This document shows positions 44,159 to 64,000 of a DNA stretch of 64,000 nt, piece after piece. The notes under the pieces were generated by a model. That model ran no database searches and was not told the origin of the DNA. It saw nothing but the letters and a program-made list of their open reading frames with translations. Positions within the stretch are counted from its first letter, which is position 1. Each line of letters begins with the position of its first letter. The stretch spans positions 948,727 to 1,012,726 of the forward strand of contig JAHQJS010000004.1 in the NCBI GenBank assembly GCA_019057385.1, read 5' to 3'. The position numbers and the translations under genes were made by a program. Source of the DNA: Candidatus Borrarchaeum weybense. GTDB taxonomy: Archaea > Asgardarchaeota > Sifarchaeia > Borrarchaeales > Borrarchaeaceae.

Positions 44159-44284
44159 ATACAAACCAATTTAACGCATCTACACCATGCGCCAACTCTT
44201 TTTTTTATTTTTTAGTTATTTCTGATATGTCTTGCCTTTTAACTCAAACAGTGCGCGATATCCACAGCTTCTAGTTTTGTAACC

Positions 44285-44995: not shown

Positions 44996-45191
44996 TTAAC
45001 CCCTTCATCAGTTACCAATTTTGAGTAGGGAAATAATTCGTAAATAACTCGAATTTTATGTATGATTTCTACATATTTTAAGGTTCAACTAAGTATAATA
45101 TCTTTGCCAAATAATTCACTAAATAAAAAGCGTGAGAAACGAAGTAGAGTATATACAATAAAGGGGAGCAAATTTTGATAAATATTATTTC

Positions 45192-47024: not shown

Positions 47025-47216
47025 TTGAGGAGTCTCTATAATTAGATGTTAAAATTTAGTGAAGTTAGTTACAAAAGGTCAATCTATTTATATTTTTGTT
47101 CTTTGGCGTAACTCTATCTCAACTGTTGTTTAGTCACAATTTCATCAACTTTAGCAATAGCTTTTAAAAACAATAGCTTTTAAAAACATCTAAAAACAAT
47201 TTCAGATGTGAAAACA

Positions 47217-47495
47217 ATGGCAGAAAAAACTCTAGAAGAATTGCTTCCAGAAGGACCTGAAAACTTTCCAGTAGGAGAAGGTGTGACCGTGCTAAGAGGA
47301 AAAACCTTGGCAAAAACAGGACAGTGGCTGAAAGCAATTCTCTTAACCGAATCAGGTAACAAAAAGCAATTACGACTATATGGATGGCAAAAGAACAAAG
47401 AAGGTCAATACAAAAATCGCCAAAAGTTCAATATTTCGCAAGGATATATGAAAATGCTTTCAAATATTATGCTGGCATTTCTAGACGAGAAATAA
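47217..47495 (+). CDS. Small protein, possible PC4/Pur-like ssDNA-binding fold
   Basis: Beta-rich LRLYGWQK...KFNI followed by amphipathic helix. Confidence 0.55.
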   Translation: MAEKTLEELLPEGPENFPVGEGVTVLRGKTLAKTGQWLKAILLTESGNKKQLRLYGWQKNKEGQYKNRQKFNISQGYMKMLSNIMLAFLDEK

Positions 47496-47717
47496 ATGCG
47501 GTTTAGAGCACTGTATATCTGAGACGTATGTTTATACCTTCAAACTTTAGAGAAAATATACCCATTCCTTTCTCAAGAGATATCAGTTCTATTTTGCTGG
47601 AAAAACGTAAATACACCTTATTTTATTTCATTTTTCTATAAATCTTTATCAAGGATTTCTACTTACTAAACGAATAAGATGGGTAACAATTAAACGGATG
47701 AAAAAGGTGAAAAAGTA

Positions 47718-48962
47718 ATGCTTAACGGCGAGATCTTGACCATGGACGATTTTGATTTAAAAGGAAAGACAATCTTAATAAGATGTGATTTAAACTCACC
47801 TGTAGATCGCGAAACGGGTATAATCACTGATGATACAAGAATTAAGGCACATGCAAAAACTGTGAGGGAACTTTCTGAAAAAGGAGCTAAGACAGCAGTT
47901 ATGGCTCATCAAGGAGATCCTTTATTTCTTGAAAATTTCGTTCCCTTAAAAGAACATGCTCAGATTCTTTCTAAATACTCTGGGGTAGAAGTTACTTACA
48001 TCGATGACACATTTGGACCTGCAGCTCGAGTAGCAATAAAGAATTTGGAAAATGGCCAGGTTTTATTGCTAGAAAATACAAGATATTTTGCAGAAGACAC
48101 TAGATTATTTGAGGATACAATCACACGATCTCCAGAGGATCAAGCTAAATGTCAACTTGTGCAGAAACTTTACCCCTTAGCTGACTATTTTATGATTGAT
48201 GCTTTCGCTGCAGCTCATAAATCCCAACCTTCAATTGTTGGTTTTGCGGAAGTGCTTCCAACTCTAGCGGGTCGAGTAATGGAAGCCGAGGTGAGTGCAT
48301 TGATGAAGGTTAGAGATGATCCCGAAAAACCTTGTGTTTTCCTTTTGGGTGGAAAAAAAATCTCTGATAAATACGTAGTAATAGAGCCAGTTCTTAAGAA
48401 TAATACTGCGGACAAGGTTTTAACTTCTGGGGTCATAGGCATGATAATGCTAAAAGCTTCTGGTTACGAACTTGGAAAACCTTCAGAAATCCTCATTCAA
48501 GAGATGAAATTCGAGAAATATCTCTCACAATCTAAAAAATTATTAGAAGACTATGGTGACAAAATAGAGTTACCTGAAGATTTTGTTATTGATGGTGTAA
48601 AAGAGATAAACGTTTCTGAATTACCAGTAGATGCTAGCATTGGTGACATAGGTAGAAAAACGATTGAAAAGTATAAGACACAATTAGAAGGCGCAAAAAC
48701 AGTATTTTTCAGTGGTCCACCAGGAATATTCGAAAAGAGAGAATTTGAAACTGGAACAAAGGAGATCCTGAATGCAATTAGCGCTGCTGGGGCTTTCTCA
48801 GTAGTTGGTGGCGGACATTCAATCGCTGCAATAGAGCAATATAATGTCAATGTAAACCTCACTAGCACTGGTGGAGGCGCATTAGTGAGATATTTGTCTG
48901 GTGAAGAGTTACCTGCAATAAAAGCATTGAAGAAAGCTGCAAAACGATATTTGAATAAATAA
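47718..48962 (+). CDS. pgk: Phosphoglycerate kinase
   Basis: RCDLNSP, LLENTR, DAFAAAH, GGGH, STGGGA. Confidence 0.97.
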   Translation: MLNGEILTMDDFDLKGKTILIRCDLNSPVDRETGIITDDTRIKAHAKTVRELSEKGAKTAVMAHQGDPLFLENFVPLKEHAQILSKYSGVEVTYIDDTFGPAARVAIKNLENGQVLLLENTRYFAEDTRLFEDTITRSPEDQAKCQLVQKLYPLADYFMIDAFAAAHKSQPSIVGFAEVLPTLAGRVMEAEVSALMKVRDDPEKPCVFLLGGKKISDKYVVIEPVLKNNTADKVLTSGVIGMIMLKASGYELGKPSEILIQEMKFEKYLSQSKKLLEDYGDKIELPEDFVIDGVKEINVSELPVDASIGDIGRKTIEKYKTQLEGAKTVFFSGPPGIFEKREFETGTKEILNAISAAGAFSVVGGGHSIAAIEQYNVNVNLTSTGGGALVRYLSGEELPAIKALKKAAKRYLNK

Positions 48963-49013
48963 AAAATTCAATAATATCAAATCATTTCTTTTTCCTTACG
49001 AAGATATTATTGT

Positions 49014-49060
49014 GTGAACTACCTCACGCTAAAGCTGTGGTGCTTTCTTGCTTAGGTTCT
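49014..49060 (-). mobile_element. 47-bp IS200/IS605 mini-element (PATE-like)
   Basis: Minus strand TTTAC|AGAACCTAAGCAAGAAAGC-hairpin-GGTAGTTCAC combines left-end and right-end features of the element at 20357-21732. Confidence 0.7.
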
Positions 49061-49084
49061 GTAAAGACTAGCAAAACCGTTAAT

Positions 49085-49321
49085 TTATAATCCCGCATCT
49101 TTGCGAGCTTTATCTGCTTCTTCTCGACCAATATAACCTTTTTCTCCGTTCTGTAGCGTGATTTTGAGTCCTTCTAAATATTTGATCCCGCAATTTTGAT
49201 GCCAATAATAATTATAACCTTTAGATGGGGCAAATCTTAGCCTAATCGAGCCTTTTTTAATCACGTCTCTACAGTATTCACATTTTGTGACCCCTGAGGG
49301 TGCTTCTTCTATATGAAACAT
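49085..49321 (-). CDS. Stand-alone PARP-type zinc finger protein
   Basis: IEEAPSGVTKCEYC...IKKGSIRL...YYWHQNC = C-x2-C...H-x2-C zf-PARP pattern. Confidence 0.8.
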   Translation of the reverse strand: MFHIEEAPSGVTKCEYCRDVIKKGSIRLRFAPSKGYNYYWHQNCGIKYLEGLKITLQNGEKGYIGREEADKARKDAGL

Positions 49322-49565
49322 TGCGTAAAATTCCTCATTCTGTCAAACCGTATTTTACGTTTACATCTTATTGAATTAAAAACTTTCTTAAAAACACCTC
49401 AATAGGAATTAACATCTCGGAGCCTGGGATCGGAAACGCATCCTCCGATGCCGAAGCAGACGATCGAAGGCGATCTAACTGCGTTTAAATCTAGATTTTA
49501 TTGCAGTTACAAATATTTCTGACAGTGGAAAAACTTAATAATAAAGAACTTCAAATTGGCTTACA

Positions 49566-49748
49566 TTGGGAGTTGGGGGGAAAATGGTCAAGAACGATTT
49601 TACAAACGCTATGCTTAATCTCTACAAGAAAGCACTCGCTATGTCTACAAGGGCGAAGAAAATCGAAGAACTCAATGCTTTTATAGAATTCCTGGCTTTT
49701 GAATTTAAGCGGAGAAAGAATCAAAGAGAGGTAAGGCTAGACAATTAG
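49566..49748 (+). CDS. Small hypothetical protein
   Basis: Short helical ORF, likely start at MVKNDF. Confidence 0.35.
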   Translation: MGVGGKMVKNDFTNAMLNLYKKALAMSTRAKKIEELNAFIEFLAFEFKRRKNQREVRLDN

Positions 49749-49901
49749 AATCGAAGAGCTCGTGAAAATGAATTCATGCACCTTAAGATCTTTAGCAATT
49801 AATATCAAGATCTATAGACCAGATAGTTGATATCTAGATTTATTCTTGAGTCTCTTATATAAAAAGATTTAAAATTGATTGAAAAAAGTGGAAGATGGCA
49901 T

Positions 49902-50951
49902 TTACCATAGACGTCGTTTTGGTTCCATGCCCAAATACTTGTTTGTTAAGCTAACTGCCTCAAGACGGTCTGTTTGCAACTGGAGAGATGCTCGAATCCC
50001 GTCTAGCGACTCGGGAATGGTCACAGCTTCCTGCGGGATATATATGGCATACATTGCTAATTTTCCAATAGTCGTCACTGTCTCTTCCCACACCACAGTT
50101 TCATACATATCCGCAAAAGGCTTCCCTGCGAATCGATTGAACTGGAGAAGTGATGTATTCGTATTAAAACCATCAGCAATCCTTAAAACTTGAATCCTTG
50201 GATGCGCATTGAAGGCATCTAGCATTTCTTCCTTTGTCAGGGGTTTCTTTGGAGTTGCTACTACATTTATAATATGGCCATGTGTCACAGGCACATGAAC
50301 AAGGAATCCTGTGGCTTGAACATGAGGCATAATCTCCATCAGATCAACTGCTTGGTGATTTGGAACTGGTTCAGGTTTCAATATGTCAACATACCCTCTA
50401 TGGGTGTCACCTGGGTCAGCACATCGTCGGACGATTGTTACCGCGATATTTTCAATTCCATGAGTTCGATCCAAACAGTCAACGGTTCTGATCAGCCCTG
50501 TCGTGTTGCAACTCGTCAGTTTGAGATAAGATTGACCCACACCTTTTTCGTAATTGGCATATCCATGAAAGAACACATCTGCAACCTCACCTGCTTCCCC
50601 ACCTTGGAAAACTGCAGGAACCTTGAATTTTTCGTAAAGAATCTTATTTTTAGCGCCGATACCTCCCGGTGCCGCGTCTAATATAATATCTACCTCTTGC
50701 AGGAGATCTTCAGCAGTACCAGCAACTGGTATGCCAGCATCTTCAATACTTTTAGTGCGTGAAGGGTCAACGCAATATAACTTGACTTCTTTATCGGCAA
50801 GGCGCATCCCTCTTGCCTTTAGGGATTTGATTGCTAAAGTCGGAGCAATATCAGCTACACCAACAAGTTCCATATCTTTCTGAAGCGCCGCTCCATAAGC
50901 CAAACGAGTCCCAATTTGACCATAACCGAAAATGCCAACTTTTGTTACCAT
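49902..50951 (-). CDS. gap: Archaeal type II glyceraldehyde-3-phosphate dehydrogenase
   Basis: GYGQIG, FQGGE, SCNTTGL, RR.ADP, QEA..IPE. Confidence 0.95.
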   Translation of the reverse strand: MVTKVGIFGYGQIGTRLAYGAALQKDMELVGVADIAPTLAIKSLKARGMRLADKEVKLYCVDPSRTKSIEDAGIPVAGTAEDLLQEVDIILDAAPGGIGAKNKILYEKFKVPAVFQGGEAGEVADVFFHGYANYEKGVGQSYLKLTSCNTTGLIRTVDCLDRTHGIENIAVTIVRRCADPGDTHRGYVDILKPEPVPNHQAVDLMEIMPHVQATGFLVHVPVTHGHIINVVATPKKPLTKEEMLDAFNAHPRIQVLRIADGFNTNTSLLQFNRFAGKPFADMYETVVWEETVTTIGKLAMYAIYIPQEAVTIPESLDGIRASLQLQTDRLEAVSLTNKYLGMEPKRRLW

Positions 50952-51257
50952 TTTGATTTCACCTCAATGAGTATATATCTAAAAAGTGATATCCTAAAGT
51001 GTATACCTAAAAGCTATTTAAGACTTAGCTTTTTTGCTGATAGACACTTACGTCACAGATCAGACAGGTCTTTACCTCACACAAATAGGGGTGCACGTCA
51101 TAAGTCTGAATCCTGCGAAATTGATGACTGGGTTTTGTTCAATATCGATTTTCTCACGTTTAAGCTCGATGCCTTGCGTGATAAGATGCAAGGAATGCTG
51201 TACTAAATTTGTGGAGTTTAAAAATCAACTGTAATATAAGATAAATAGAAGGCGATC

Positions 51258-52784
51258 ATGATGATTCAGACCATCAAACTCCGAATGTATCCTGATGAGG
51301 CACAAGAATATCAACTCCATGAAATCTTTACCATCTATAACCGGGTGAAACGCATTGGTTACAACCTGCTGTTTCATAACGAGGACTACATGGTAGAGCG
51401 CTTCGATGAGGGTAAAACCATCCAACAGTGTTTGATGAGTCTGTGCCACAATAACCCTTATGTCAATACTATCTTGATTGACAACAAGGCGCAACTGGAA
51501 TCACAAAAGACGTGGCTGGAAAAACGACGCACACGCATGACACAGCAGCTACAAGTCATCATCAAGAAAATCAAAACAATAAAAGAGAAAGATACACATG
51601 ACAGACGGTTGAAGGGCTTATACGCCCGTAGATCCTCAATAATGGCTAAACTGCGCAATTTACACCTCGAACCTGTGGTATTTGGCACTAAGAAATTATT
51701 CAGAGACAGAATACGCGGCAACATAAGTAGGGAAGAGTTCAGGATACGACGGGATTCTTCTTTCAGTTGCATTGGAAAGCAACAGGGAAAAAACCTGAAC
51801 ATTAAAGTATTGCCCAGAAAAACCGTCAAGATACGCACCTTTTCCAAGCAAAAAGGATGCAAATGGCTGATCATTTCCCTTTCCGTAAACTCTGTGCAGG
51901 AAAAATGGTTTCAAGATATTTTTAATTCCGACAAATACACGGTGACCGTGAAACGGAAGTTTTTCAAGGGGACGGTGCGTTATTTTGTCCATGTTTCTTA
52001 TGAAATTCCAGAACCTGTACCACGTTGTGGCTACGAACATGGTGCCATCGGATTAGATTTCAACTATAATTTTGTTGCCCTGACCAATGTCGATCAACAT
52101 GGTACATTACTCTCTTATCATACCATTTCGTTTTGCAACCTCCACAGCTATCGAACAAATAAACGTAGCGATTACATCTCTTATAAGATGGATAAAGTCG
52201 TCAATTATTGCATCAATAAGGGCAAGGGCATCGTGGTCGAGGACTTACAATTCGGCCAAGAGTTTTACTATAATAAAAAACGCAACCGAAAATTCAGCAA
52301 TATGAAGACCACTGCCTTGCAGCTGTTAGAGAGAAAATGCAAAAAGCGAGGTGTGTCCTTTCGAAAGGTATTTCCTGGATATACCTCCATAATCGGGAGG
52401 TATAAGTATTCAGGATTACATAATTTGTCAACACATCACTTAGCAAGTTATGTAATAGCTCGAAGGGGTTTAGGTTTCAGGGAAGTCATTCCAGCCATCT
52501 ACGATTGGGTGTCCTCACAAGTCGGGGAGTTCATAGAACCCCGTTTGAAACAGGATAGTCCTTACCGTAGATGGTCGATGATCCATGACCTCTTCAAGCA
52601 CAGTGGGATAACTTCCTTCAAGGCTGCCGAAATACTTAAAAAAACAGTATTAATGAGGCATGTTTTGCACTCGGTGACGAGCGCACAGCCCGATAACCTT
52701 AAGGCTGGTTCTTCCTTCTTGAAAGCAGGGAGAATTGATGATTATTATAAAGTGTGGAATTTTATAACTAATCCCACATTATAA
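51258..52784 (+). CDS. TnpB-related protein with non-canonical RuvC-III and no zinc finger
   Basis: QTIKLRMYP, GLDFN (RuvC-I), VVEDL (RuvC-II), V.PGYTS.IG..KY, HHLASYVIARRG in place of the RuvC-III Asp motif. Confidence 0.8.
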   Translation: MMIQTIKLRMYPDEAQEYQLHEIFTIYNRVKRIGYNLLFHNEDYMVERFDEGKTIQQCLMSLCHNNPYVNTILIDNKAQLESQKTWLEKRRTRMTQQLQVIIKKIKTIKEKDTHDRRLKGLYARRSSIMAKLRNLHLEPVVFGTKKLFRDRIRGNISREEFRIRRDSSFSCIGKQQGKNLNIKVLPRKTVKIRTFSKQKGCKWLIISLSVNSVQEKWFQDIFNSDKYTVTVKRKFFKGTVRYFVHVSYEIPEPVPRCGYEHGAIGLDFNYNFVALTNVDQHGTLLSYHTISFCNLHSYRTNKRSDYISYKMDKVVNYCINKGKGIVVEDLQFGQEFYYNKKRNRKFSNMKTTALQLLERKCKKRGVSFRKVFPGYTSIIGRYKYSGLHNLSTHHLASYVIARRGLGFREVIPAIYDWVSSQVGEFIEPRLKQDSPYRRWSMIHDLFKHSGITSFKAAEILKKTVLMRHVLHSVTSAQPDNLKAGSSFLKAGRIDDYYKVWNFITNPTL

Positions 52785-52918
52785 ATAATTGTAAGGTTTA
52801 AGAATATCCACATAATTTTTCTTGATTCCCAGTCCGTTTCGTAAGTTCAAAATTTGTCTTCCTCTTATAAGCTCTAAATTTAGAAAGTCAAATTAAGGAT
52901 TCAAAGGAGTTCCTAATT

Positions 52919-53326
52919 GTGAATAAACAAACTGATTTACAAAATAATAAGGAACTTTATGGCGTTTTCAATGAATTAAGGAACTATTTAGCCGGTATGG
53001 CTGCTGGTATGACTCGTGATGAAAGTTTAATACAAGAATTGATACCTCTTCTCTTTTGTAAAATTTATACTGAAAAAAATATAGATTTGAAAGATAAGTT
53101 TCGAGCAGAATCAAAAGAATCAGCCGGTGTTATAAAAAGGCGGATTTCAGCAATTTTCAAAATGGTTAAGAAAGAATTTGAGGATATTTTTGAAGAAGAG
53201 GAAAAAATTGATCTAAAGGCGGAATCAGTTAAGTTCATTGTCAGCAAGCTGCAAAATCATGATCTAACGACGGTGGATCAAGATGCAATCGGAAATCTGT
53301 TTGAATCCTTCCTTGGTCGATCGTAG
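52919..53326 (+). pseudogene. N-terminal fragment of an N6-adenine MTase (HsdM-like) paralog
   Basis: GMTRDESLIQELIPLLFCKIY...DAIGNLFESFLG aligns to 56093..58666; stops about five codons before GQFFTP. Confidence 0.85.
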
Positions 53327-53595
53327 CCAAAGATACCAATTTGCTCGTAGCTAAAACAACTAATACTGATACTAAAATGTTACTCAAGCAGATTTGATTG
53401 TTTTGTATAATTAGTAGATGGTATCTAGTGTACAACTGATTTTCTCATTATTTACAAACAACTAAAATCTCAAATAACGTCTATAAACCACGAAAATTTA
53501 CTATCATACTTTTACTGTGGTCTCTCTCTAGTAAAATATATTATATTTCATAATTTTTCTAGAGAGCATGTATGTATTCTATCGAGGTTGTAAAC

Positions 53596-54408
53596 ATGAA
53601 ACAAACAAAAAAACAGATCGTGGTTCGTGCCTATACTCCAATAGCTAAACCTCATAATGTGTCTATTCAAAAAAATTCCACTATGCTTCTTCTAGGTGAA
53701 ATTTCTTATGAAAGTGGTTCGAAAGCATTCAATACAAAACTGTATTACATTAAAGGGGTACGCGGAATGTTGAGGCATGCCGCCATGTCTCTTGCTCAAG
53801 ATTGTGGTATAGAAGTCTGCCATTCCAGTGAAAAAACTGAGCTCAAAGATGGGACTCAACTCGTTCCTTCTGGTTTCCATCCTCTTGGCTCATGTGATCC
53901 TCCTTGTATTCTCCGAAGAATCTTTGGCACCTTCCGCGAAGAATCCTCAATCTCCGTCTTAGTTGATCCTATTGCTTCGATAAAGCATAAAGAATACACT
54001 ACTGAGTTACCTGCTCAAAAAGTCCATATCGCCACTGAAAATAGGATAGCCCTTACTTATGATAGAACGGCTATTCAAGATTTTCGTGAAAGCTATTTCA
54101 GCGGGTATTTTAACTTCGTAATCGACATCACAAATTTAACCGATGATGAGATCAAGTTCATCGTGGAATCGTTGCTCTACATCGAAACACTTGGCAGTGG
54201 CAAAAATGCTGGTTATGGATATATCAAGATTCTAGAGGTCGAAATCCAGAATGTACATGTTTTGCGAAACATCACGATGGATAACGGAGTATATAAGATC
54301 ATTGAAGAAATCGAAGTAAAACCGATACTACTTGAAAACATCGAAGAATGGAGAAACGCGTATATGAGAGAAAATCTGATAAAAATTGAACAACAACACT
54401 CCACTTGA
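53596..54408 (+). CDS. Cas7/Csm3-like RAMP protein
   Basis: First strand RAYTP, KGVRGMLRH helix, C...C..PC..RRIFG, ENRI thumb, G-rich loop LGSGKNAGYG; GAGGT RBS. Confidence 0.85.
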   Translation: MKQTKKQIVVRAYTPIAKPHNVSIQKNSTMLLLGEISYESGSKAFNTKLYYIKGVRGMLRHAAMSLAQDCGIEVCHSSEKTELKDGTQLVPSGFHPLGSCDPPCILRRIFGTFREESSISVLVDPIASIKHKEYTTELPAQKVHIATENRIALTYDRTAIQDFRESYFSGYFNFVIDITNLTDDEIKFIVESLLYIETLGSGKNAGYGYIKILEVEIQNVHVLRNITMDNGVYKIIEEIEVKPILLENIEEWRNAYMRENLIKIEQQHST

Positions 54409-54665
54409 TTAGTTGTGAAAGGGCGTGAGAAATAATGGAGATTTTCTCTTCTAAGACGCTCATCGCCCGCTTTTTCTCAGCTAAGACGGAATACTTCTTG
54501 TAATCTGCAAGAAGCACGTTCTTATGTGAGAGACAGTTATTATAGAGGTCCCAAACCTCGGTTGATGGGGAAAGAATGTCCGGCAGAGGGATGAATAAAA
54601 CGATAACTACTTTACCAAAAGGGTTACAAAAGCCGTTACTTTCCCATGGTCTTATATCTCCCGTT
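54409..54665 (+). ncRNA. Putative structured guide-like RNA, copy A (scaffold 54409-54610 plus variable 3' segment)
   Basis: Multi-hairpin intergenic region with motif string shared with 55537-55698. Confidence 0.7.
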
Positions 54666-54708
54666 TAAATGACAAAAAATTTAAAACATCCTATAGTGGT
54701 GCTGAAAA

Positions 54709-55512
54709 ATGCCAAAAAGATGGTTTAAATTATCTGGTGTAACTAAAACTCCAGTGATCACGAAAAAAAGACATTTTTTTCATAAATTTGGGGTAATTAC
54801 CATTAATGGTAGTCCTAGAGTGTTCGGTAAACTTACGAAAGGTGAGAGACGCGCTCCTATGACCTTTAGGGCATGGCATGGAACAGTAGAGTTTATTATT
54901 CCTCACTCAAAACTCGAACCAGCGCTCGCTATTGAAAGTATCGGGAGATATACCCATGAAGGGATGGGGCAAATACTGTGGACAAGTGTAAAACAACTCC
55001 CCAAAAGACCTCTCTATACTCCAAAAAAAATTAGGATTCGTAAAATGCTCCCAAAACTTTCAGATACATGGGAAAAACTAATGATCGCCATGTTACTACA
55101 TGATTTCGTGAATACTGAAAAACATTCCAGCAAAATTTACTCTGAGGTTACTATCGTTGATGACGACGTATATAATCTAGCGAAAAATCATCATAATTAC
55201 GAGATGGATGAAAGGGAATTGCCCCTCCTCGCTACCCTCCAACATTATGACCAAGTTTCTTCCTCAATTTCTCGAAAGTTTAGGTGGTCTACCTCCTCAC
55301 GTTATCGTGCAGATATTCAAGAGAAAATAGATTTTGATACACTAAAAAGAGAGATAGAATTGAGAAAACATTCTCTTTATGCTCTTTATAGCTTCATCTA
55401 TAAGTCTCAAGTACTTAATGAGATCAATGAGGCAATAGAATTTGGTTTCTCTTCTTTAAAAAACCATCTTCTTCTGATGGTCAATCTCTTTCTTGATGAC
55501 CTTTATGGATGA
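54709..55512 (+). CDS. Compact Cas5-like RAMP fused to HD nuclease domain
   Basis: VTKTPVI first strand, IGRYTHEGMG G-rich loop, then LLHDF...HH...YDQ..S HD pattern. Confidence 0.75.
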   Translation: MPKRWFKLSGVTKTPVITKKRHFFHKFGVITINGSPRVFGKLTKGERRAPMTFRAWHGTVEFIIPHSKLEPALAIESIGRYTHEGMGQILWTSVKQLPKRPLYTPKKIRIRKMLPKLSDTWEKLMIAMLLHDFVNTEKHSSKIYSEVTIVDDDVYNLAKNHHNYEMDERELPLLATLQHYDQVSSSISRKFRWSTSSRYRADIQEKIDFDTLKREIELRKHSLYALYSFIYKSQVLNEINEAIEFGFSSLKNHLLLMVNLFLDDLYG

Positions 55513-55536
55513 GTTTTTATGTCACAAGTTATGGTG

Positions 55537-55780
55537 TTGCAATCCCTCTTTACAGATAAATATACAGGATGCAAGACGGACTGTTCATCGCATATCGCGA
55601 TGAACACGTTCTTGTACATGAGACTGAACCCGAGAGGTCCCACGCCTCAGATGACGGGAATGGATGACAGGCCAAAGGACGAGAAAAGTGATAAATACGG
55701 ACACTTTTTCACGCCAAGAAACGTTGTCAGATTCGCTATTACCATTAATGATCCTAGGAATGGTAATGGCATCCTCCCTA
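55537..55780 (+). ncRNA. Putative structured guide-like RNA, copy B (scaffold to 55698 plus hsdM-like 3' segment)
   Basis: Same motif string as copy A with compensatory hairpins; followed by T-tract. Confidence 0.7.
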
Positions 55781-55794
55781 TTTTTTTATTTTTT
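55781..55794 (+). terminator. Archaeal poly-T terminator candidate
   Basis: TTTTTTTATTTTTT right after RNA copy B. Confidence 0.5.
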
Positions 55795-55803
55795 CAATAA
55801 TAG

Positions 55804-55960
55804 TTTTACATGAACCTCTCTTTTAAAAAAATGCCATTCATCCACATTATCATAGAAACTTCTAGCGAGATTACTAAGACTTGCCCAGAGCATCTATCTA
55901 TAACACACGAAAGATCAAACTTACTATAACAAAATAAACGTCAGAGGGGTTCTGGTAAAA
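55804..55960. repeat. 157-bp segment with 17-bp imperfect terminal inverted repeats (MITE-like)
   Basis: TTTTACATGAACCTCTC ... GAGGGGTTCTGGTAAAA (14/17 complementary); no clear TSD. Confidence 0.4.
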
Positions 55961-56002
55961 TGCTTCATAATTTTGAATAGTTTTGTCGGTTCCCCATACA
56001 AT

Positions 56003-56023
56003 TTTATAGATGTTGTTTGCAAA
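56003..56023. repeat. 21-bp dyad motif copy
   Basis: TTTATAGA-TGTTG-TTTGCAAA. Confidence 0.45.
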
Positions 56024-56092
56024 AAAGAACATCAAATTAGATTTCCTAGTTTTTTAACTTAAGTCAATGATTGCTCAGGTTGGTTAAGAATT

Positions 56093-58666
56093 ATGCCGAC
56101 ACGAACGAAATCAGTTGAAAAGGTTTCCTTTGCTGAGGAACGCGTCAAAGGACAGATGAGACTTATTGATTTTATTTCTGGAAGTTTAGTTGAAGCCACA
56201 CCTGAAGAGGTAGAGGCTGTTCAGGTCTTTTCTCGCAGATTGGTCGAAGAGTTTGGATATGATAAAAATCAAATCCAAACAAGACCTCAATTTAAAATCC
56301 GGGGCGCACCGTCAGGTAAACCAAAATATCCTGTTGACATAGCCGTCTTTAATGACGAAAAAAAAACCCATGGCAACTTGTTTATGATTGTCGAATGCAA
56401 ACGAAAGACTCGTCGAGATGGAGAAAAGCAACTGAAAATATATTTGGGACTATCAAGTGCTCAGATAGGAGTTTGGTTCAATGGTAGTGAGCACCTCTAC
56501 CTACAGAAGATTCTCGACAAAGAGGGAAATGTAACCTACAATTTAATTCCCACGATTCCCAAAAAAGGACAAAGAATTGAAGATATTGGCAAATACAAGC
56601 GAAAAAACCTGACGAAACCGAGTAATATAATCTCTTTGTTCAAAGATATTAAGAATCACTTATACGGAAACGTCGTAGGAATTACTCGTGATGAAGCTTT
56701 AATACAAGAAATAATGAATCTACTATTCTGCAAAATATACGATGAACTGAATACTGCTCCGGAAGATGATGTTGCTTTCAGAGTAGGAATCAATGAAGAC
56801 TCGAATCAGGTCAAGGAGAGAATCTCTGAGCTATTCAAGTTTGTGAAAATAGCATACGAGGATATCTTCGAAGAGCGAGACGAATTACGTCTTGATCCTG
56901 ACTCACTTTGTTATGTTGTTGGCGAATTGCAACCTTATAGTCTGTCAGAAGTAGATAGTAACGCAATAGGCGATGCGTTCGAGGTATTCATTGGAAAGGC
57001 GCTCAAGGGTGCCGAGGGGCAGTTTTTTACACCTCGAAATGTGGTTCGAATGGCTGTTGAGATACTTGACCCACAACCCTACGAACATATCGTTGATCCT
57101 GCATGCGGTAGCGGAGGTTTCTTAATATTTGCAATGGAACATGTGTGGCAAAAACTTAAGATTGAAGCTAAAAGAAAGAATTGGTCAACCGAAATGCTAC
57201 AGAAAAGAAAGACAGAAATTGCGAGCAAATTTTTTGGTGGAATTGACAAGGACATGTTCCTAGCAAAAGTCACAAAGGCTTACATGGCACTAATAGGTGA
57301 CGGTAGAGGCGGAATATTCTGTGAAAACTCTTTAGAATTCCCAGAAAAATGGCAGGCGACTACCCAACAAAGAATAATGCTTGGTAAATTTGATGTTCTA
57401 TTTACTAATCCTCCCTTCGGATCAAAGATCACTATCAAGAAATCATTGTATTCTCAGTTCGAGTTAAGCTTTAAATGGAATAAAAACAAAAAAACTGGTA
57501 AGTGGAAGAAGGGTAATAAACAGGCAGACAAAAGACCACCGCAAGTTCTGTTTATTGAGCGATGTTTACAATTTCTTGCTCCAAACGGAAGAATGGCAAT
57601 CGTTTTACCTGATGGTTTATTAAGCAATCCCAGCGATGGTTATATTACACAGTATATCAAGGATAATGCTGAGATCATTGGACTCGTCGATTTACCAATG
57701 AGTACTTTCTTACCTAATACACCCACGAAGACACATATTTTGTTCTTAAGAAAGAAAAAACCTGAGGGGAACTATCCAATCTTTATGGCCTACGCGAAAA
57801 CTTGTGGACATGATAAGAGAGGGAAGATCATCTATAAAGTCGGTGAAGCTGGTCAAAATGTTGTTGATGATGACATTTATGAAATATCAAAGCATTTTGC
57901 TCGCAGATATGAAAGAGTTAATAAATATGATAGGAAGGGATTTCTTGTTTATCTTGACGATTTAAAGTCAGGTATACTGTTACCGAAATATTATAATCCA
58001 GAATTGAATGAGAGATTAGAAGCGTATCGACAGACTGGTGAATATGACGTTTATTCTATAGGTGATTTAGTTAAACTGGGAAAGTTGTGGATAAGGAGAG
58101 GCCATGAAGTCGGATCTGTGAATTATGGAACTGGCGATATCCCGTTTATTCGGACTTCGGAAATATCAAATTGGGAACTAACTGCCGATCCTACTCATTG
58201 TTTAGCCGAGGATATATACGAGGAATACAAGGATCGCCAGAAACTAAAAAAAGATGATATCTTAATTATAAATGATGGTACGTACCTAATGGGTCGAACC
58301 GCGATACTTTCTGAAAATGATACAAAAATTGTTGTTCAAAGTCACATCAGAATTCTTACAGTCTTAGACCGAGAATTTATTCACCCTTATCTTTTGTTGT
58401 TCCTCTTAGGATTGAGAATTGTTCAAGAACAGATTGAGTCGAAATCCTTTAGACAAGCTACTATCTCTACTCTAGGAAACAGACTTCTTGAAATCAGAAT
58501 CCCACTACCAAAAGATGAAAAAGTAAGAAAAGAAATTGTTGAGCAAGTTTCTAACATAGTTGAGAAGCGCTCGATGCTAAGACATAAGGCGATGAATATT
58601 GAATTCAATGGAACATCAGAGAGTGTTATGGGTATAAAAAACAAGGCAACCTTGGGAAATCTATAG
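56093..58666 (+). CDS. Single-chain restriction-modification enzyme (HsdR-N-like nuclease + N6-MTase + specificity domain; type IIG/IIB-like)
   Basis: PEE...Q, PVDIAV...IVECK nuclease; GQFFTP, DPACGSGG, NPPF; C-terminal TRD (IPFIRTSEI, DDILI, I.IPLP). Confidence 0.92.
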   Translation: MPTRTKSVEKVSFAEERVKGQMRLIDFISGSLVEATPEEVEAVQVFSRRLVEEFGYDKNQIQTRPQFKIRGAPSGKPKYPVDIAVFNDEKKTHGNLFMIVECKRKTRRDGEKQLKIYLGLSSAQIGVWFNGSEHLYLQKILDKEGNVTYNLIPTIPKKGQRIEDIGKYKRKNLTKPSNIISLFKDIKNHLYGNVVGITRDEALIQEIMNLLFCKIYDELNTAPEDDVAFRVGINEDSNQVKERISELFKFVKIAYEDIFEERDELRLDPDSLCYVVGELQPYSLSEVDSNAIGDAFEVFIGKALKGAEGQFFTPRNVVRMAVEILDPQPYEHIVDPACGSGGFLIFAMEHVWQKLKIEAKRKNWSTEMLQKRKTEIASKFFGGIDKDMFLAKVTKAYMALIGDGRGGIFCENSLEFPEKWQATTQQRIMLGKFDVLFTNPPFGSKITIKKSLYSQFELSFKWNKNKKTGKWKKGNKQADKRPPQVLFIERCLQFLAPNGRMAIVLPDGLLSNPSDGYITQYIKDNAEIIGLVDLPMSTFLPNTPTKTHILFLRKKKPEGNYPIFMAYAKTCGHDKRGKIIYKVGEAGQNVVDDDIYEISKHFARRYERVNKYDRKGFLVYLDDLKSGILLPKYYNPELNERLEAYRQTGEYDVYSIGDLVKLGKLWIRRGHEVGSVNYGTGDIPFIRTSEISNWELTADPTHCLAEDIYEEYKDRQKLKKDDILIINDGTYLMGRTAILSENDTKIVVQSHIRILTVLDREFIHPYLLLFLLGLRIVQEQIESKSFRQATISTLGNRLLEIRIPLPKDEKVRKEIVEQVSNIVEKRSMLRHKAMNIEFNGTSESVMGIKNKATLGNL

Positions 58667-58718
58667 TACCTTAGTTGATTTTTGGTCTCTTATATATCTA
58701 AGAATATAAGTTAAAGGC

Positions 58719-59555
58719 TATAAAATCGATAAGAATGGAGATAAACAACTCGATGATGATCTTTTGCAAATAGGTAAGCGATATCATGATCTACGTCAAA
58801 ATTTTAATGAAAAATATGACCATCTAGGTTTTTTCATTGACGTACAGAATTTAAAAAAAGGAATTCTCATGCCAAAATATTACAACCCAGAAATCAAGAA
58901 TGAATTAAGGAGGCTTAAAGAAACAGGCCATTATGATTTGGTAAGTATTGGAGAGTTGGAGGGACAAAACACACTCCAGATAAGTTGTGGTCACGAGATA
59001 GGTTCTATAAATTATGGCACAGGAGATATTCCTTTCATTCGCACCTCTGAAATAAGTAACTGGGAGATTGCAGCAGATCCGACTCATTGTGTTTCAGAAG
59101 ATATCTATGAGATGTACAGAACAAAGCAGGATCTACAGAAAGACGATATTCTTATTGTAAATGATGGGACCTACTTAGTTGGTCGAACTGCAATTCTATC
59201 AGAATTTGATGTGAAAATTGTTATTCAAAGTCATTTTAGAAAAATTCGTGTTCTTGATTGGAGTGACTTGACGCCGTATCTTTTGCTTTATCTGTTAGGT
59301 TTGAGAATAGTTCAGAATCAAATAGAAGCGAAAACATTTCGCCAGGCTACTATCTCGACTCTTGGAAATAGACTGCGAGAAATCATTCTGCCTATTCCAA
59401 AGAATTCCAAACTTAAAGCAGAAATTTCTGAAAGTGTAGAACTCATCGTTGGGAAACGTGCAAAATTACGGAATCAGGCTATGCACATGCAATTTGATGA
59501 TAAAAAAGAGAATGTGATGGGACTGCAAAATAAAGCAGCCCGTGGTAATATCTAG
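58719..59555 (+). pseudogene. C-terminal (specificity-domain) fragment of a paralogous R-M gene; may be expressed from TTG 58764
   Basis: Highly similar to the C-terminal third of 56093..58666; homology extends upstream (YKIDKNGDKQLDDD) with no start codon. Confidence 0.75.
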
Positions 59556-59626
59556 TGAAGTTCTAAAGGTTCGGTTTCAGATAATTGACAAACTAGTCTC
59601 GGGCTAATAAACACACTCAATAAAAT

Positions 59627-59992
59627 TCACGGAAAGGGTCTGATTTCATAAATTATCTTCCCTGTTTTTAATACATGCCGTAAGAATCTACTAATTGGAA
59701 TATGTTCATTTAGTTCCTCTTCTGTATACGCTAGTATATCACAGTCTACAGCCCTCTCTATAATCTCATAGATCTCTTTCATCCATTCTTTTCCTGATTT
59801 TGTGGGAGGCATAATAACAAAGAGGTCTAAATCACTCCATCTACCGACTTTTCCATGAGCTACAGAGCCAAACAATATTATTCTTATAACTCCCATCTCT
59901 TTAAGTTGTTGTGTAATTTCTTTTAGCCCTTGAAACAACTTCTCTTTTCTTTTTTCCTTTTGTGCGCGAAGTTCTTTCAATGTTAGACTCAT
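59627..59992 (-). CDS. Minimal nucleotidyltransferase (MNT) antitoxin
   Basis: ILFGSVAHG...SDLDL, CDIL, GKIIYE. Confidence 0.9.
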   Translation of the reverse strand: MSLTLKELRAQKEKRKEKLFQGLKEITQQLKEMGVIRIILFGSVAHGKVGRWSDLDLFVIMPPTKSGKEWMKEIYEIIERAVDCDILAYTEEELNEHIPISRFLRHVLKTGKIIYEIRPFP

Positions 59993-60165
59993 TGGTATCT
60001 CCAGTCTTTAAACTCGAATAAGTTCTTATAAACCGTATAATTATTCATAGAAATATAATAATCCTCTGAAAGGATAAGAAGTCACTTTTGGCAAATAGTA
60101 ATTATACTTTTGATTTGCACACATTTATCATCATGTGCAAAAATATATTATATTAGATAGAATCC

Positions 60166-60642
60166 TCACACCTCTATTTTGTATATGAATTCACAATAGG
60201 GGTCCCCTGCACACATGGATTTTGGACGTTCAACCGCAGCCTTTGGGTTTATAGTTTTAACAACGATATTTGGAAAGATTAAGTCCCATTCACTGATATC
60301 TTTTGGTTCTGTTTTAAACGGACATTCAGTAATTCTTTGTGTAATGCTTGTCTTAGATCGCTCAAGCCAAGAACTTTCAGCACCAGTGACCTCCCACCAT
60401 ATATCATAAAACTTTTCTATTTTTTCAATATCATTTCCTTCTATTTTAAAGATCTTCATAAGTGACTTTGTCATATTCCTTATTCTATCATCCATTTTAC
60501 TGACCATTTCATAAATTTCGAGTGCTGCAAAGGCTCCGTATTTCTTGCGAATCGCATATAAGAACCCTTTGAGTATAGTTGTCCATGCTCCTAAAACAAA
60601 ATCATATTTAAATTCCAAAGGTATCGCCACTTTCTTAACCAT
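60166..60642 (-). CDS. V4R/ATC-hydrolase-like ligand-binding protein
   Basis: ITECPF...INP...MCAGDPYCEF. Confidence 0.7.
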   Translation of the reverse strand: MVKKVAIPLEFKYDFVLGAWTTILKGFLYAIRKKYGAFAALEIYEMVSKMDDRIRNMTKSLMKIFKIEGNDIEKIEKFYDIWWEVTGAESSWLERSKTSITQRITECPFKTEPKDISEWDLIFPNIVVKTINPKAAVERPKSMCAGDPYCEFIYKIEV

Positions 60643-61005
60643 AGTCTCCTCCTCTCCAGTCTTTCGGCGTTATTTAAGGTTCTAGAAACTCTACATGAAT
60701 TACTAGGGTACATTTATTATTCGCTATTCTCGTTTCTATACTATTCTCACTTTTATACTTATATTCGCTATTCTCAGCTTTAAAACTAGTTTGAAATGCA
60801 AATGTGTTGGTAATAGCAACTAGAGAGCTGGAAACAAATAATTCGCTCAAAGTTGCTTCAAATCACAAAAATCATCTAAAAAATACAAGAAAAACCCGAG
60901 CGATACAAAAAATGATTTCAGTTGATATGCGAACAATAAATATATCTTCAAGTTAAATAAAAAAAAAGAAACTGAAAGTTGAGATCCTGCGGTTGGCAGC
61001 GTGTT

Positions 61006-61323
61006 TTAAGGGTTTAGAGCGGTAATAGCTTTATCAGGATAGAATTTTATGATGGTCTCAAAATCGACACAGGGTAATATTTCATACTCCAGTAGATCCA
61101 TCCAATAGCGATTAAATGCCGATAAATCCCTCATATCACCCTCAGCCACATAGACACTCGTAGTTTGACCGTAGGCGCTAGGAAAATCCCATGTAATGAA
61201 ATTTAACCGTTTAAAAGCTTCCGTAGCTGCTGAATCCTTTCCCTTTAGAAACTCTGCAAAGCGTTGTAAAACCGCTGGCGTTTGTTCAGGCTTCCATCTA
61301 GATATTCCAACAAATCTTGGCAT
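61006..61323 (-). CDS. DUF3303-like small protein
   Basis: MPRFV...W.PE...W.DLLEYEILPC pattern. Confidence 0.6.
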   Translation of the reverse strand: MPRFVGISRWKPEQTPAVLQRFAEFLKGKDSAATEAFKRLNFITWDFPSAYGQTTSVYVAEGDMRDLSAFNRYWMDLLEYEILPCVDFETIIKFYPDKAITALNP

Positions 61324-61476
61324 TTTTTCATCCCCTCCCTATTCTGGGTACTTATAAAGCGCCCCTCCTCGGCGCCTGGAGGTGTAAGAGTCATGTTTCC
61401 CTGAGAATCATTCATACAACTCCTCAGGTATCGACTCTCTTTCGACTGGGGGTGAAATCACCCCCTCCCCCACGAC

Positions 61477-61599
61477 TTGTCATAGTACAAGTTTTGATAG
61501 ATCGTTTGTCGCTATATGACAAACAACTTATCAGTTTATGACAAGTTAAATTACTATATATGACAACTTATATATATAGTTTTCTTTTACAAATGACAA
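61477..61599. promoter_or_regulatory. Helically phased ATGACAA array
   Basis: ATGACAA at 61516, 61538, 61560, 61593; inverted copy at 61477. Confidence 0.6.
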
Positions 61600-61783
61600 A
61601 CTTGAATTCACTCTTAGTCAAGGAATATCAAATAAGTACAAATTCAAAAGAATATCAAAAAAAGAACTGAGCAGAAAGGATACACGATCATGTAGGTATT
61701 ATATGACCAAGTTTTCCTTATATTAGACTTCTGCTGGCTACTAGTACCAAAAACAGAAGTACCAAACAAAAAAGGTTACTGGC

Positions 61784-63514
61784 ATGTCGAACTCGTCATT
61801 AAGATCATCTACTCCCTTCCGAAAACTCTCTGAACTTGGAGAACAAATTGAAGCTGCCACAAAACGTCTAAAAAAGATGTATTTGGCAGGTGAGTTCCTT
61901 GACAGCATACCTCTAGAAGAGGTAGAAGCTGCGTCATTACTACTAATCGGACAACCGTTTCCCCGCACTAGCCAGCGAACATTAGATCTCGATTGGTCTG
62001 CCCTTTCTCAGATCCTTCAAGAGTTACTTAACCCTCCTCCGAACACGATAAGCCAATTTTTCAGCGAAACTGGTGATATAGGTGAAGTAGTTCGCCGAAT
62101 TTACCAAAAATCTGGTGGAATCCGACAAACAACTCTATTCAGTATCCCGCTGACTATTCTAGATGTCTATCAAACCTTTTCAGAAATTGCTGATATTCAA
62201 GGATCTGGTTCTCGCAAAAGAAAAATGACTTTACTTCGTTCCCTCTTCACTAGAGTGACTCCACTCGAAGCAAAATACCTAACAAAGCTTCTTTTTCGTG
62301 ATCAACGAATTGGCTTTAGCGAGGGGATGTTAGAGAGTACCATTGCACGCAAATATAACGCGCCTTTGGAACTTGTTCAGCGAGCAAATATGCTTCGTGG
62401 GAATGTTGGCGAATTAGCACGTATTACTAGAGCAGAAGGTGTCGATGGTCTGCAAAAAGTGAAACTTCGTCCGTTTACGCCCCTTCTTCCTATGTTGGCT
62501 GCCCGAGCAACCGATATTGATGATGTTTTGCAGCAATATGATGATGAGTGGGCCTTCGAAATGAAACTCGATGGCGCCCGCGTACAAATCCATCTGCAAG
62601 AGAATAATGGGGCAACAGAAACTCGTATATACAGCCGTCGACTTACCGATGTTACCGCTAGTTTGCCAGATGTAGTTAATTTAGTCGAACAGGAAATAAG
62701 TGTATTTAGTTGTATTCTTGAAGGCGAAGTTATAGCTCTTGGACCTGATGGACGTCCATTACCATTTCAAAATCTTATGCGACGATTTCGACGGATTCGG
62801 GAAGTGGAAATGATGACTGAAAAAATACCCGTCACTCTTTTCCTTTTCGATTTGCTAATGTTAGACGGTGAGGTGCTAATTGACTCCTCATATGGAATTC
62901 GAAGAGAAAGCCTAAGTTCTATCTGTGGTTCGATTCCGCTCGTTTCCCAAATTGTCACTAGAAATACTGAAGAGGCAACACGGTTTTTCCAAAAAGCAAT
63001 ACAAGAGGGTCACGAAGGTCTTATCGCCAAACGTATTGATAGTCCCTATAAACCTGGTAGCCGGGGAAAACTGTGGTTAAAGATAAAACAAACAATGGAG
63101 ACTCTTGATTTAGTGATCATTGCTGCAGAATGGGGAACTGGTCGTCGTCATAAATGGTTATCAGATTATCACTTAGGTGCAAGAGATCCAGAAACCGGCG
63201 ATTTTCAGATGTTGGGTAAAACTTTTAAGGGGCTAACAGATGCAGAATTTGAGGAAATTACACAACGCTTATTAGAGCTTAAGATTGATCAACCCGGCAG
63301 AATTGTAGTTGTCCAACCACAAATTGTAGTTGAAGTTGAGTATGATGAAATTCAACGTTCACCCCGATATTCATCAGGAATGGCACTCCGATTTGCGCGT
63401 ATCAAACGTATTCGCTATGACAAGACTCCCAATGAAGCTGATACCATTCAAAGGGTTCGATCACTTTTTGATTCACAATTTAAGCGGAAATCACAGTCGG
63501 ATGAAGTGGGATGA
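61784..63514 (+). CDS. lig: ATP-dependent DNA ligase
   Basis: PMLA, EMKLDGARVQIH, EGE, FDLL, EGLIAK, WLKIK, LRFARI. Confidence 0.97.
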   Translation: MSNSSLRSSTPFRKLSELGEQIEAATKRLKKMYLAGEFLDSIPLEEVEAASLLLIGQPFPRTSQRTLDLDWSALSQILQELLNPPPNTISQFFSETGDIGEVVRRIYQKSGGIRQTTLFSIPLTILDVYQTFSEIADIQGSGSRKRKMTLLRSLFTRVTPLEAKYLTKLLFRDQRIGFSEGMLESTIARKYNAPLELVQRANMLRGNVGELARITRAEGVDGLQKVKLRPFTPLLPMLAARATDIDDVLQQYDDEWAFEMKLDGARVQIHLQENNGATETRIYSRRLTDVTASLPDVVNLVEQEISVFSCILEGEVIALGPDGRPLPFQNLMRRFRRIREVEMMTEKIPVTLFLFDLLMLDGEVLIDSSYGIRRESLSSICGSIPLVSQIVTRNTEEATRFFQKAIQEGHEGLIAKRIDSPYKPGSRGKLWLKIKQTMETLDLVIIAAEWGTGRRHKWLSDYHLGARDPETGDFQMLGKTFKGLTDAEFEEITQRLLELKIDQPGRIVVVQPQIVVEVEYDEIQRSPRYSSGMALRFARIKRIRYDKTPNEADTIQRVRSLFDSQFKRKSQSDEVG

Positions 63515-63560
63515 ACAAGTTTTTCTGAGTAGTTATTATTTGCGAGTTTAGGTGTTAAAA

Positions 63561-64000
63561 TTGAATCAAGAGTCTGAAGATTATCTTCAATTATCGAAGA
63601 AGCAAATGAAAAAACTTGGTTATCAAACCATAGACATGATTGTCAAGCATTTTGAGGAGCTTAGAAATAAACCAGTTACACGAAAGGCATCTCGTTTAGA
63701 CATGGAACAAACATTTCGGGAGCCAATCCCTGATCATGGCACGAATCCAGAGCATATTCTCGATATTATTGAAAAGGAAATTTTTACAAATATTATGTAT
63801 ACAGATCATCCCCGTTTCTTTGCATTTGTGCCAACGGCAAATAATTTTATAAGCGTTCTAGCTGATGCTCTAGTTGCTGGGTTTAATCCTTTTGCTGGTA
63901 CATGGCTAGAAAGCTCTTCAGCGGCTCAAATTGAATTAGTGACAGTTGATTGGTTAAGAAGAATTTTTGGAATGCCAGAAGAAGCGGGAGGATTATTTTT
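63561..64000 (+). CDS. Group II PLP-dependent decarboxylase, 3'-partial
   Basis: MKKLGYQTIDMIV...DHPRFFAFVP...IELVTVDWL; runs off the window. Confidence 0.85.
   Translation, partial: MNQESEDYLQLSKKQMKKLGYQTIDMIVKHFEELRNKPVTRKASRLDMEQTFREPIPDHGTNPEHILDIIEKEIFTNIMYTDHPRFFAFVPTANNFISVLADALVAGFNPFAGTWLESSSAAQIELVTVDWLRRIFGMPEEAGGLF

Follow-up and report, generated by a model that had tools for sequence, protein, structure and literature searches.

A Conserved, Pseudoknotted RNA Accompanying the Cas7-Like and HD-Domain Genes of an Array-Less ARAMP Cassette in Candidatus Borrarchaeum weybense

We analysed a stretch of 64,000 nucleotides (the window) from the Asgard archaeon Candidatus Borrarchaeum weybense (assembly GCA_019057385.1, contig JAHQJS010000004.1, positions 948,727 to 1,012,726, forward strand), in which two copies of a folded RNA element, A and B, accompany a two-gene cassette. 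Gene 1 codes for a Cas7-like RAMP protein and gene 2 for a protein combining a RAMP domain with an HD domain of the Cas10 type; the order gene 1, copy A, gene 2, copy B fills an insertion between 53323 and 55698 in a methyltransferase gene. Our analysis showed that both copies belong to a family whose fold is under selection at the RNA level, and, from its sequence and setting, this previously unlisted RNA is the best candidate we have for the RNA that the ARAMP system has so far lacked. The features of the locus are as follows:

52919–53322, + strand: left fragment of a gene for an N6-adenine methyltransferase, running from the native start codon up to the insertion, recognised by MAD2/type I methyltransferase models
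53323–55698, + strand: inserted helicase-less ARAMP mini-module of 2376 nt, replacing 16 nt of the methyltransferase gene (empty-site comparison with the intact orthologue, L139)
53572–54408, + strand: gene 1, Cas7-like RAMP; the start shared by the family is probably the ATG at 53596
54409–54484, + strand: P1, 5' stem-loop of copy A (54409–54415 with 54478–54484), beginning directly after the gene 1 stop codon
54480–54605, + strand: core scaffold of copy A (covariance model 89 bits; most copies 110–142)
54709–55512, + strand: gene 2, RAMP/RRM domain (residues 1–105) and Cas10-type HD domain (residues 118–267), as seen in an AlphaFold model
55537–55574, + strand: 5' stem of copy B, UUGCAAUCC / GGAUGCAA (55537–55545 with 55567–55574)
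55570–55693, + strand: core scaffold of copy B (covariance model 132 bits, E 2e-29)
55694–55754, + strand: variable 3' tail of copy B, of which 55699–55754 is resumed methyltransferase sequence, GHFFTPRNVVRFAITINDP
55735–55797, + strand: hairpin (55735–55770, -14.7 kcal/mol) and T-rich run of copy B, the likely predicted 3' end of the transcript

Both copies are present as a first-pass annotation, made from the letters alone, had described them, and they share an alignment over about 125 nt. Conserved blocks in the two (AAGACGG, CACGUUCUU, GAGAC, GAGGUCCCA..CCUC, GGGAA and GGA.GA..AAA..GAUA) are interrupted by a hairpin that is wholly different in sequence between A and B. A profile search recovered about 25 copies of the family in the 4.18-Mb host genome, and a covariance model trained on 23 of the copies returned 51 (47 of them distinct) at 53–142 bits from the host genome, congeneric genomes and sediment metagenome contigs. 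Nearly all lie directly 3' of a Cas7-like gene 1 or a RAMP+HD gene 2, most commonly in the order gene 1, RNA, gene 2, RNA, while tandem runs of two to three units occur at M120 and L071/L117. The core measures 125 nt and its mean identity across the copies is 78%. Among relatives with less than 50% protein identity, the model gave one plausible weak match at the expected position (L118; 13 bits, E 0.38), and a search with the filters off found no third, degenerate scaffold upstream of gene 1. Scanning both strands of positions 44000–64000 of the window with cmscan returned no Rfam match at E<=1, the ribozymes, introns, CRISPR-DR families and known small RNAs included, so that no known ribozyme or intron family was hit; a match to a known ribozyme family had been named as a possible refutation in the first-pass annotation. 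Contigs of four DNA sequencing runs mapped onto the locus yielded fragments and many further scaffold copies; one low-depth contig joins 54498 to 55606 and looks like a chimera of scaffold copies.

The family also has members in other settings. Orphan or degenerate scaffolds lie far from gene 1/gene 2 pairs (L048 9723–9839, C4:562854, C4:1262893, C6:210621, C7:108104 and C7:768028), one of them adjoining a gene 2 fragment (C7:768017–768370); these are remains of decayed cassettes. The most array-like layout found is on a contig of Ca. Borrarchaeum yapensis (L071/L117 6803–8304), where gene 1, two small open reading frames (120 and 121 aa), three tandem scaffolds and gene 2 follow one another, each scaffold with a unique spacer of 100–135 nt; the first of the small frames appears membrane-like, a by-eye judgement from reading the DNA alone.

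Fold statistics were computed for the 47 distinct sequences in a model-based alignment, with 500 shuffles and slid structures as controls. The consensus structure has 96% standard pairs compared to 90% in the shuffles, and 83 cells carry changes on both sides compared to 26, a covariation that none of the 500 shuffles and none of the slid controls equals; slid structures reach only 43–60% pairing. Selection acting on an RNA fold, as suggested at the outset, is thus borne out in this larger alignment, and the proposed size of about 160–200 nt is about right, since the core, tail and terminal hairpin together come to roughly 200 nt. U-G pairs are abundant and are compatible with the gene strand only: on the opposite strand they would read C-A, and therefore the RNA lies on the gene strand. 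The elements of the fold within the two copies are:

54494–54514, + strand: inner hairpin of copy A, recognised by covariation
55582–55606, + strand: inner hairpin of copy B, recognised by covariation
55607–55613, + strand: CGUUCUU, 5' strand of the long-range helix of copy B, pairing with 55675–55681 (the GGGACG side)
55629–55632 with 55655–55658, + strand: CCCG/CGGG stem of copy B, enclosing the GAGG/CCUC hairpin 55634–55648
55641–55643, + strand: loop CAC of copy B, 5' strand of the pseudoknot, pairing with GUG at 55688–55690
55675–55693, + strand: 3' end of the copy B scaffold, comprising the 3' strand of the long-range helix, an A-rich tract and the 3' strand of the pseudoknot, ending in ..GGACGAGAAAAGUGAUA

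The inner hairpin, claimed earlier to be conserved in fold rather than in sequence, changes on both sides in eight of its nine pairs, and the GAGG/CCUC hairpin was likewise found, with AAGG/CCUU variants. The motto of 'structure, not sequence' holds for this inner hairpin and the stems but not for the rest of the core, with its identity of 78%. The GACG/CGUU helix, which had been thought to close the inner hairpin, is possible (91.5% standard pairs), but its CGUUCUU strand has a better and mutually exclusive partner in the 3' GGGACG, with which it forms a helix of 7 bp (97% standard pairs in 45 sequences, with one U-A to C-G compensation); CGUUCUU may switch between the two. The pseudoknot had been sought in the wrong place: a UCCC loop was supposed to pair with a downstream YGGGR, but the loop varies (CCC, CUG, CCG) whereas the GGG is fixed and pairs with an upstream ACC. 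This ACC../..GGG stem occurs as CCCG/CGGG, CCAAU/GUUGG, CCAUC/GAUGG, CUCAUC/GAUGAG and CUCAC/GUGAG, many of these changes being compensatory. The pseudoknot that the alignment supports instead joins the loop [C/G]AC with a 3' GU[G/C]. Of 45 copies, 23 have G-C and 19 have C-G as its central pair (0/2000 shuffles as good), and a tree of the remaining alignment columns implies that this pair switched independently at least about three times. A compensating U-A is seen at the neighbouring pair in L063, and in the divergent L118 copy, which follows gene 2 in a relative with 50% identity, the pseudoknot is retained in the form AAC/GUU.

Upstream of the core, the 5' stems that had been proposed for both copies are present in both, but they differ in standing. 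That of copy A, with an additional inner pairing GGGCGUGAG/CUCAUCGCCC, beats shuffles (duplex -17.8 kcal/mol, z -4.5, 0/200 as good), whereas that of copy B does not (-8.1 kcal/mol, p 0.36). Across the family, the stem reaches p<=0.05 in 8 of 45 copies, every one of them 3' of gene 1. Conversely, a TATA-like hexamer occupies -36 to -26 in the same region in 14 of the roughly 27 copies that are terminal or orphan, so the 5' region there is probably promoter and not RNA. The placement is narrow, as 30 of the 39 TATA-like hexamers within 60 nt upstream sit at -36 to -26 relative to CAAG, and it suggests a dedicated archaeal promoter for the boxed copies, with the predicted 5' end of the RNA near CAAGRCGG. 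The box is missing from copy B and from copies 3' of gene 1. Self-processing of the fold, which the first-pass annotation had considered, is not required where, as in about half of the terminal and orphan copies, an own TATA box appears to be present.

Downstream of the core, the tails vary with the position of the copy. Those of terminal copies are unique, with no second match in the host genome. Those of copies 3' of gene 1 recur upstream of gene 1 in their own module, at 97% over 39 nt in one module and at 85–90% over 47–53 nt in others. Stable downstream hairpins are found in 32 copies and start 38–56 nt past the core in 21 of these, often followed by a T-run. In the terminal hairpin of copy B the 5' arm is derived from the methyltransferase gene and the 3' arm is not: the former is a mutated methyltransferase piece (ATTGACATT to ATTACCATT), and the latter, with the T-run, is unrelated to it.

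The origin of the copy B tail follows from the insertion itself. The fragment at 52919–53322 is 88% identical to 1498–1901 of the intact orthologue, a gene for 695 aa in a congeneric genome with 86% protein identity. Homology restarts at 55699, 5 nt past the scaffold GUGAUA that forms the 3' end of copy B, runs at 84% identity against orthologue positions 1918–1973, with a match at the protein level as well, and ends after 56 nt, inside the hairpin. Because copy B stands at the cassette edge, its tail comes from whatever DNA the cassette landed in. A second module (C6, contig 6) is missing from two congeneric genomes, with homology restarting 5–10 nt past the scaffold end, and here a convergent HDAC gene gains 17 codons from the antisense strand of the scaffold. 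At a third site all that a sister genome retains of the scaffold at the orthologous position is its final 69 nt, and at other modules convergent neighbour genes likewise end at or inside the scaffold end. None of the metagenome contigs from the four DNA runs bridges an empty site.

Several observations concern the surroundings of these insertions. The remaining approximately 1.2 kb of the methyltransferase gene is gone from the window's locus. Upstream of the fragment and outside the insertion lies a TnpB-like gene (508 aa, 51258–52784, + strand; NCBIfam guided_TnpB 4.6e-10, below the cut-off), and downstream (56093–59555, + strand) a specificity-subunit gene follows one for an intact N6-methyltransferase of 857 aa, which carries an HSDR_N domain and is 43% identical to the fragment; the methyltransferase locus may be a defence island. 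Against the intact paralogue, a putative every-sixth-base pattern (wobble matches 1/9 versus 5/10 by phase) was rejected, the matches being too few to tell it from ordinary codon drift. A 45-nt perfect palindromic repeat with 13-nt arms, ATTCTACCTGAAA / TTTCAGGTAGAAT, occurs at L148 1375–1488 (G308), C4:747517, C4:743019, C7:418119 and C6:724509; considered as a left end of the cassette, it proved to be a separate dispersed repeat that lies upstream of one module and not at the others. In the congeneric genome G308 it abuts a solo 3' half-scaffold where the host genome has a full cassette.

Turning to the proteins, gene 1 matches Pfam RAMPs (5e-7) and PADLOC Csm3 (5.5e-8), and its family profile finds its best solved relatives in type VII Cas7 (3.4e-5), then Cas7-11. 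The host genome codes for 11 paralogous gene 1/gene 2 pairs. Relatives of gene 1 come from Promethearchaeota, Sifarchaeia, Hodarchaeales, Heimdallarchaeota and Ca. Borrarchaeum yapensis, with a match in 22 of 400 genomes of the phylum, and gene 1 and gene 2 are neighbours in every relative examined, down to 32% identity. The gene 2 product (267 aa; AlphaFold pLDDT 89.4 with 26 homologues) had no family match in protein-family scans, and a sequence search of solved structures found none; Foldseek gave weak RAMP matches. Its modelled structure is more telling: residues 118–267 match the N-terminal HD domain of Cas10/Csm1 (6ifk_A residues 2–215) with Z 8.6, and residues 1–105 form a single RAMP/RRM fold nearest the chains of Cas6, type IV Cas5, Csm4 and Cmr3 (Z 6–7), so that this domain could, going by the model, be either Cas5-like or Cas6-like. 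The first-pass premise that no Cas6 is present is weakened by this likeness. The family shows a G-rich loop and LLHDF, HH and YD motifs.

In 7 of the 11 modules an upstream gene of about 1330 aa is a DEAD/DEAH helicase fused to a Cas1 domain (Pfam Cas_Cas1 36.5 bits, residues 984–1261 of a 1363-aa fusion), and it is on this ground that we assign the cassette to ARAMP; the window's own module is without the gene. Judged by sequence, the cassette has the attributes of that system: an Asgard host, diverged Cas7 and RAMP proteins, a divergent Cas1 in most loci and no adjoining array. No CRISPR array was found at positions 44000–64000 of the window. A canonical Cas1 (Pfam 269.6 bits) is coded elsewhere in the host genome (C4:153602–154474), and therefore the 11 ARAMP modules share that genome with an ordinary CRISPR-Cas locus. 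In a second clade of divergent gene 1/gene 2 pairs (33–41% identical) the two genes overlap and no RNA separates them (C5:80645–82256 [L053 6046–7675], L077, L118, L123 and others). At four of its loci (L017, L134, L135 and L102) the pair is flanked by repeats of its own of 66–129 nt, possibly a counterpart RNA, the likeness of those at L017 and L134 to the present family being only loose.

Taken together, we consider it about an even bet (probability roughly 0.5) that A and B represent one structured small-RNA family of the ARAMP cassette, with the core as a protein-held scaffold and the tail as a guide. The cassette would then comprise the helicase-Cas1 fusion, the Cas7-like protein, the RAMP/Cas10-type-HD protein and the RNA. 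The 125-nt core would be held by the RAMP proteins in the manner of an overgrown repeat or handle, and the 40–55 nt past it, often closed by a hairpin and T-run, would be the guide, lined by Cas7-like subunits. The tail of the copy 3' of gene 2 would be transcribed from the DNA of the landing site, here 56 nt of the methyltransferase gene, while that of the copy between the genes may act back on the promoter of the cassette itself. A bolder extension, which we regard as unlikely, is that ARAMP is an RNA-guided system in which the scaffold loads a Cas7-like filament and a Cas10-type HD nuclease and each insertion makes a guide from its flank; such a guide could recognise the cassette's own empty site or neighbouring transcripts. 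Were it true, both the long pseudoknotted scaffold and the insertion-flank guide would be new for class 1 effectors. ARAMP and the related HRAMP have been catalogued as array-less CRISPR derivatives and hence thought possibly not programmable; a covarying RNA with a constant scaffold and a variable tail makes the programmability of ARAMP directly testable.

A number of points weigh against the scaffold-and-guide reading. Transcription as a unit of about 170–230 nt, the transcript ends, protein binding and guiding are all things we infer from sequence, and the sequencing runs that hold this stretch are DNA metagenomes from sediment, mangrove, soil and seawater, with no RNA run listed. To our knowledge, a 125-nt scaffold and a pseudoknot between tail base and scaffold are without precedent in Cas7-type complexes. 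The unique tails have no target in the host genome, and two exact-word scans of viral contigs gave 0 matches for two of them (an exact-word scan of viral contigs with the conserved core also gave 0). Copies 3' of gene 1 have conserved rather than variable tails, which extend over the promoter and 5' portion of gene 2. About half of the terminal copies either have no downstream hairpin or have it in another place, and such hairpins could be terminators of neighbouring genes. Copy A itself looks like a degenerate member, because it scores only 89 bits, has two of three pseudoknot pairs broken and lacks the downstream hairpin. As for mobility, no common left end of the cassettes was found and the left junctions of two insertions share nothing; identity between paralogous cassettes is only about 70%, which does not demonstrate recent transposition.

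Four rival explanations were ranked, in descending order, as a regulatory or processing element, a Cre-like RNA, a DNA-level end and a ribozyme. The foremost, which we hold to be a lesser but real contender, is that the element is cis-acting or protein-binding and has no guide role, be it as a 3' untranslated region, an intercistronic stabiliser or processor, or an autoregulatory RAMP site. It draws on the location of the copies, which directly follow the gene 1 and gene 2 stop codons, on the absence of a TATA-like box from those following gene 1, in which the stem begins in the stop-codon region, and on the conserved tails over the gene 2 promoter just mentioned. Yet it would leave the boxes at a fixed distance in about half of the terminal and orphan copies unexplained, as well as orphans far from any cassette gene; tandem units with unique separating segments are hard to understand as untranslated regions, and a pseudoknotted 125-nt core that is 78% identical, where the proteins are about 70% identical, exceeds the usual needs of a stabiliser. 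Rather improbable, to our mind, is an antitoxin or addiction RNA, of the type III toxin-antitoxin or CreA/CreR kind, restraining the HD nuclease or the cassette promoter. The recurrence of the tail following gene 1 upstream of that gene is what a guide to the own promoter would show, and Cre-type RNAs are known derivatives of CRISPR RNAs (PMC8730458). Against this, the within-module likeness of tail and gene 1 upstream region clearly exceeds the between-module likeness in one module only, a shared promoter element would account for the match equally well, and the tails of terminal copies are unrelated.

The coincidence of the scaffold 3' end with the right edge of the insertion in two empty-site comparisons, the sister genome that keeps only the 3' 69 nt and the Cas1 domain of the cassette could all be read as conservation at the DNA level, with the helicase-Cas1 protein recognising the sequence as the end of a Cas1-mobilised element or as its site of attachment or recombination. 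We give this little credence as the sole explanation: compensation by Watson-Crick and U-G pairs on one strand, together with a pseudoknot, is a signature of RNA rather than of protein-bound DNA, the internal copies between the genes are not at an edge, searches turned up neither a corresponding left end nor an inverted copy, and in the window's module the RNA occurs without Cas1. A role as a DNA-level site is also compatible with an RNA function, and the two can coexist. Finally, a self-cleaving ribozyme or self-splicing element would suit a fold that is compact and pseudoknotted and whose single-stranded joints are highly conserved, in a module without a standard-length Cas6 gene, but we judge it very improbable in view of the empty Rfam result for ribozymes and introns at E<=1 on either strand and the potentially RNA-processing RAMP domain coded next door. 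Removing the element as a self-splicing intron would not restore the methyltransferase frame either, because the insertion took the place of 16 nt and the gene breaks off after another 56 nt.

Among known systems, ARAMP itself was named in 2020 (Makarova et al. 2020, CRISPR J 3:156) and is outlined in a review summary as an HRAMP-related Asgard system with a mostly distinct Cas1 and an enigmatic mechanism (PMC8730458). The present cassette resembles it in its Asgard host, diverged Cas7/Cas5-like RAMP genes nearest type III, divergent Cas1 and lack of an array. The same summary describes no RNA (PMC8730458), whereas the genes of the present cassette come with a conserved, pseudoknotted RNA; the 2025 CRISPR classification paper makes no mention of such an RNA or of the helicase fusion. 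HRAMP shares the lack of an array, very diverged Cas5/Cas7 pairs with extra nucleases and a predicted defence function, but it belongs to another archaeal lineage with another gene set, and the review summary gives it no associated RNA either (PMC8730458). No experimental test of ARAMP or HRAMP was found in the literature searched.

With the CRISPR RNAs (crRNAs) of types III and VII, the family has in common Cas7-like and RAMP/Cas10-type-HD partners and the arrangement of a constant part 5' and a variable part 3', and its 40–55-nt tails would fit 7–9 Cas7 subunits. The purine-rich tract before the variable segment had been taken for a possible Cas5 handle in the first-pass annotation; this GGGACGAGAA tract preceding the tail resembles the end of the type III-A repeat with its 8-nt tag, where the crRNA begins ACGAGAAC (PMC5389561), a resemblance that we treat as a lead only. 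In contrast to the 24–37-nt repeats of those types, the constant part is 125 nt long with four helices and a pseudoknot; the units number one to three and are separated by a protein gene, flanking or promoter DNA takes the place of even-sized spacers as the variable part, and the cassette lacks Cas2, Cas6 and the Cas10 cyclase. The repeats of CRISPR arrays are direct repeats of about 23–50 nt with regular unique spacers of similar size. An interpretation of the present copies as such a repeat-spacer array was rejected on account of the 125-nt cores, the one to three units per locus and the irregular spacing (102–145 nt or a whole gene). Like CreA and CreR, the RNA lies inside a cas operon, and its variable part may likewise match the promoter of its own locus; those RNAs, however, have short repeat-like flanks and partial matches of 11–17 nt, as against a long scaffold and 39–53 nt at 85–97% here, a match that could equally come from a promoter element common to both places.

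The omega RNAs of TnpB and IscB differ in that their partners are RuvC nucleases rather than class 1-type RAMPs with an HD nuclease; the cassette has no IS200/605 ends or transposase, and its mobility is known only as presence or absence between species. What it has in common with them is a 100–200-nt scaffold at the end of an insertion, read outward, with the host flank as the 3' variable part, the scaffold end being 5–10 nt from the right edge of the insertion in the two empty-site comparisons, which is a likeness of layout only. Should ARAMP prove to be RNA-guided, it would represent a class 1, Cas1-linked counterpart of the omega-RNA principle and, possibly, offer a window on the origin of repeat and guide.

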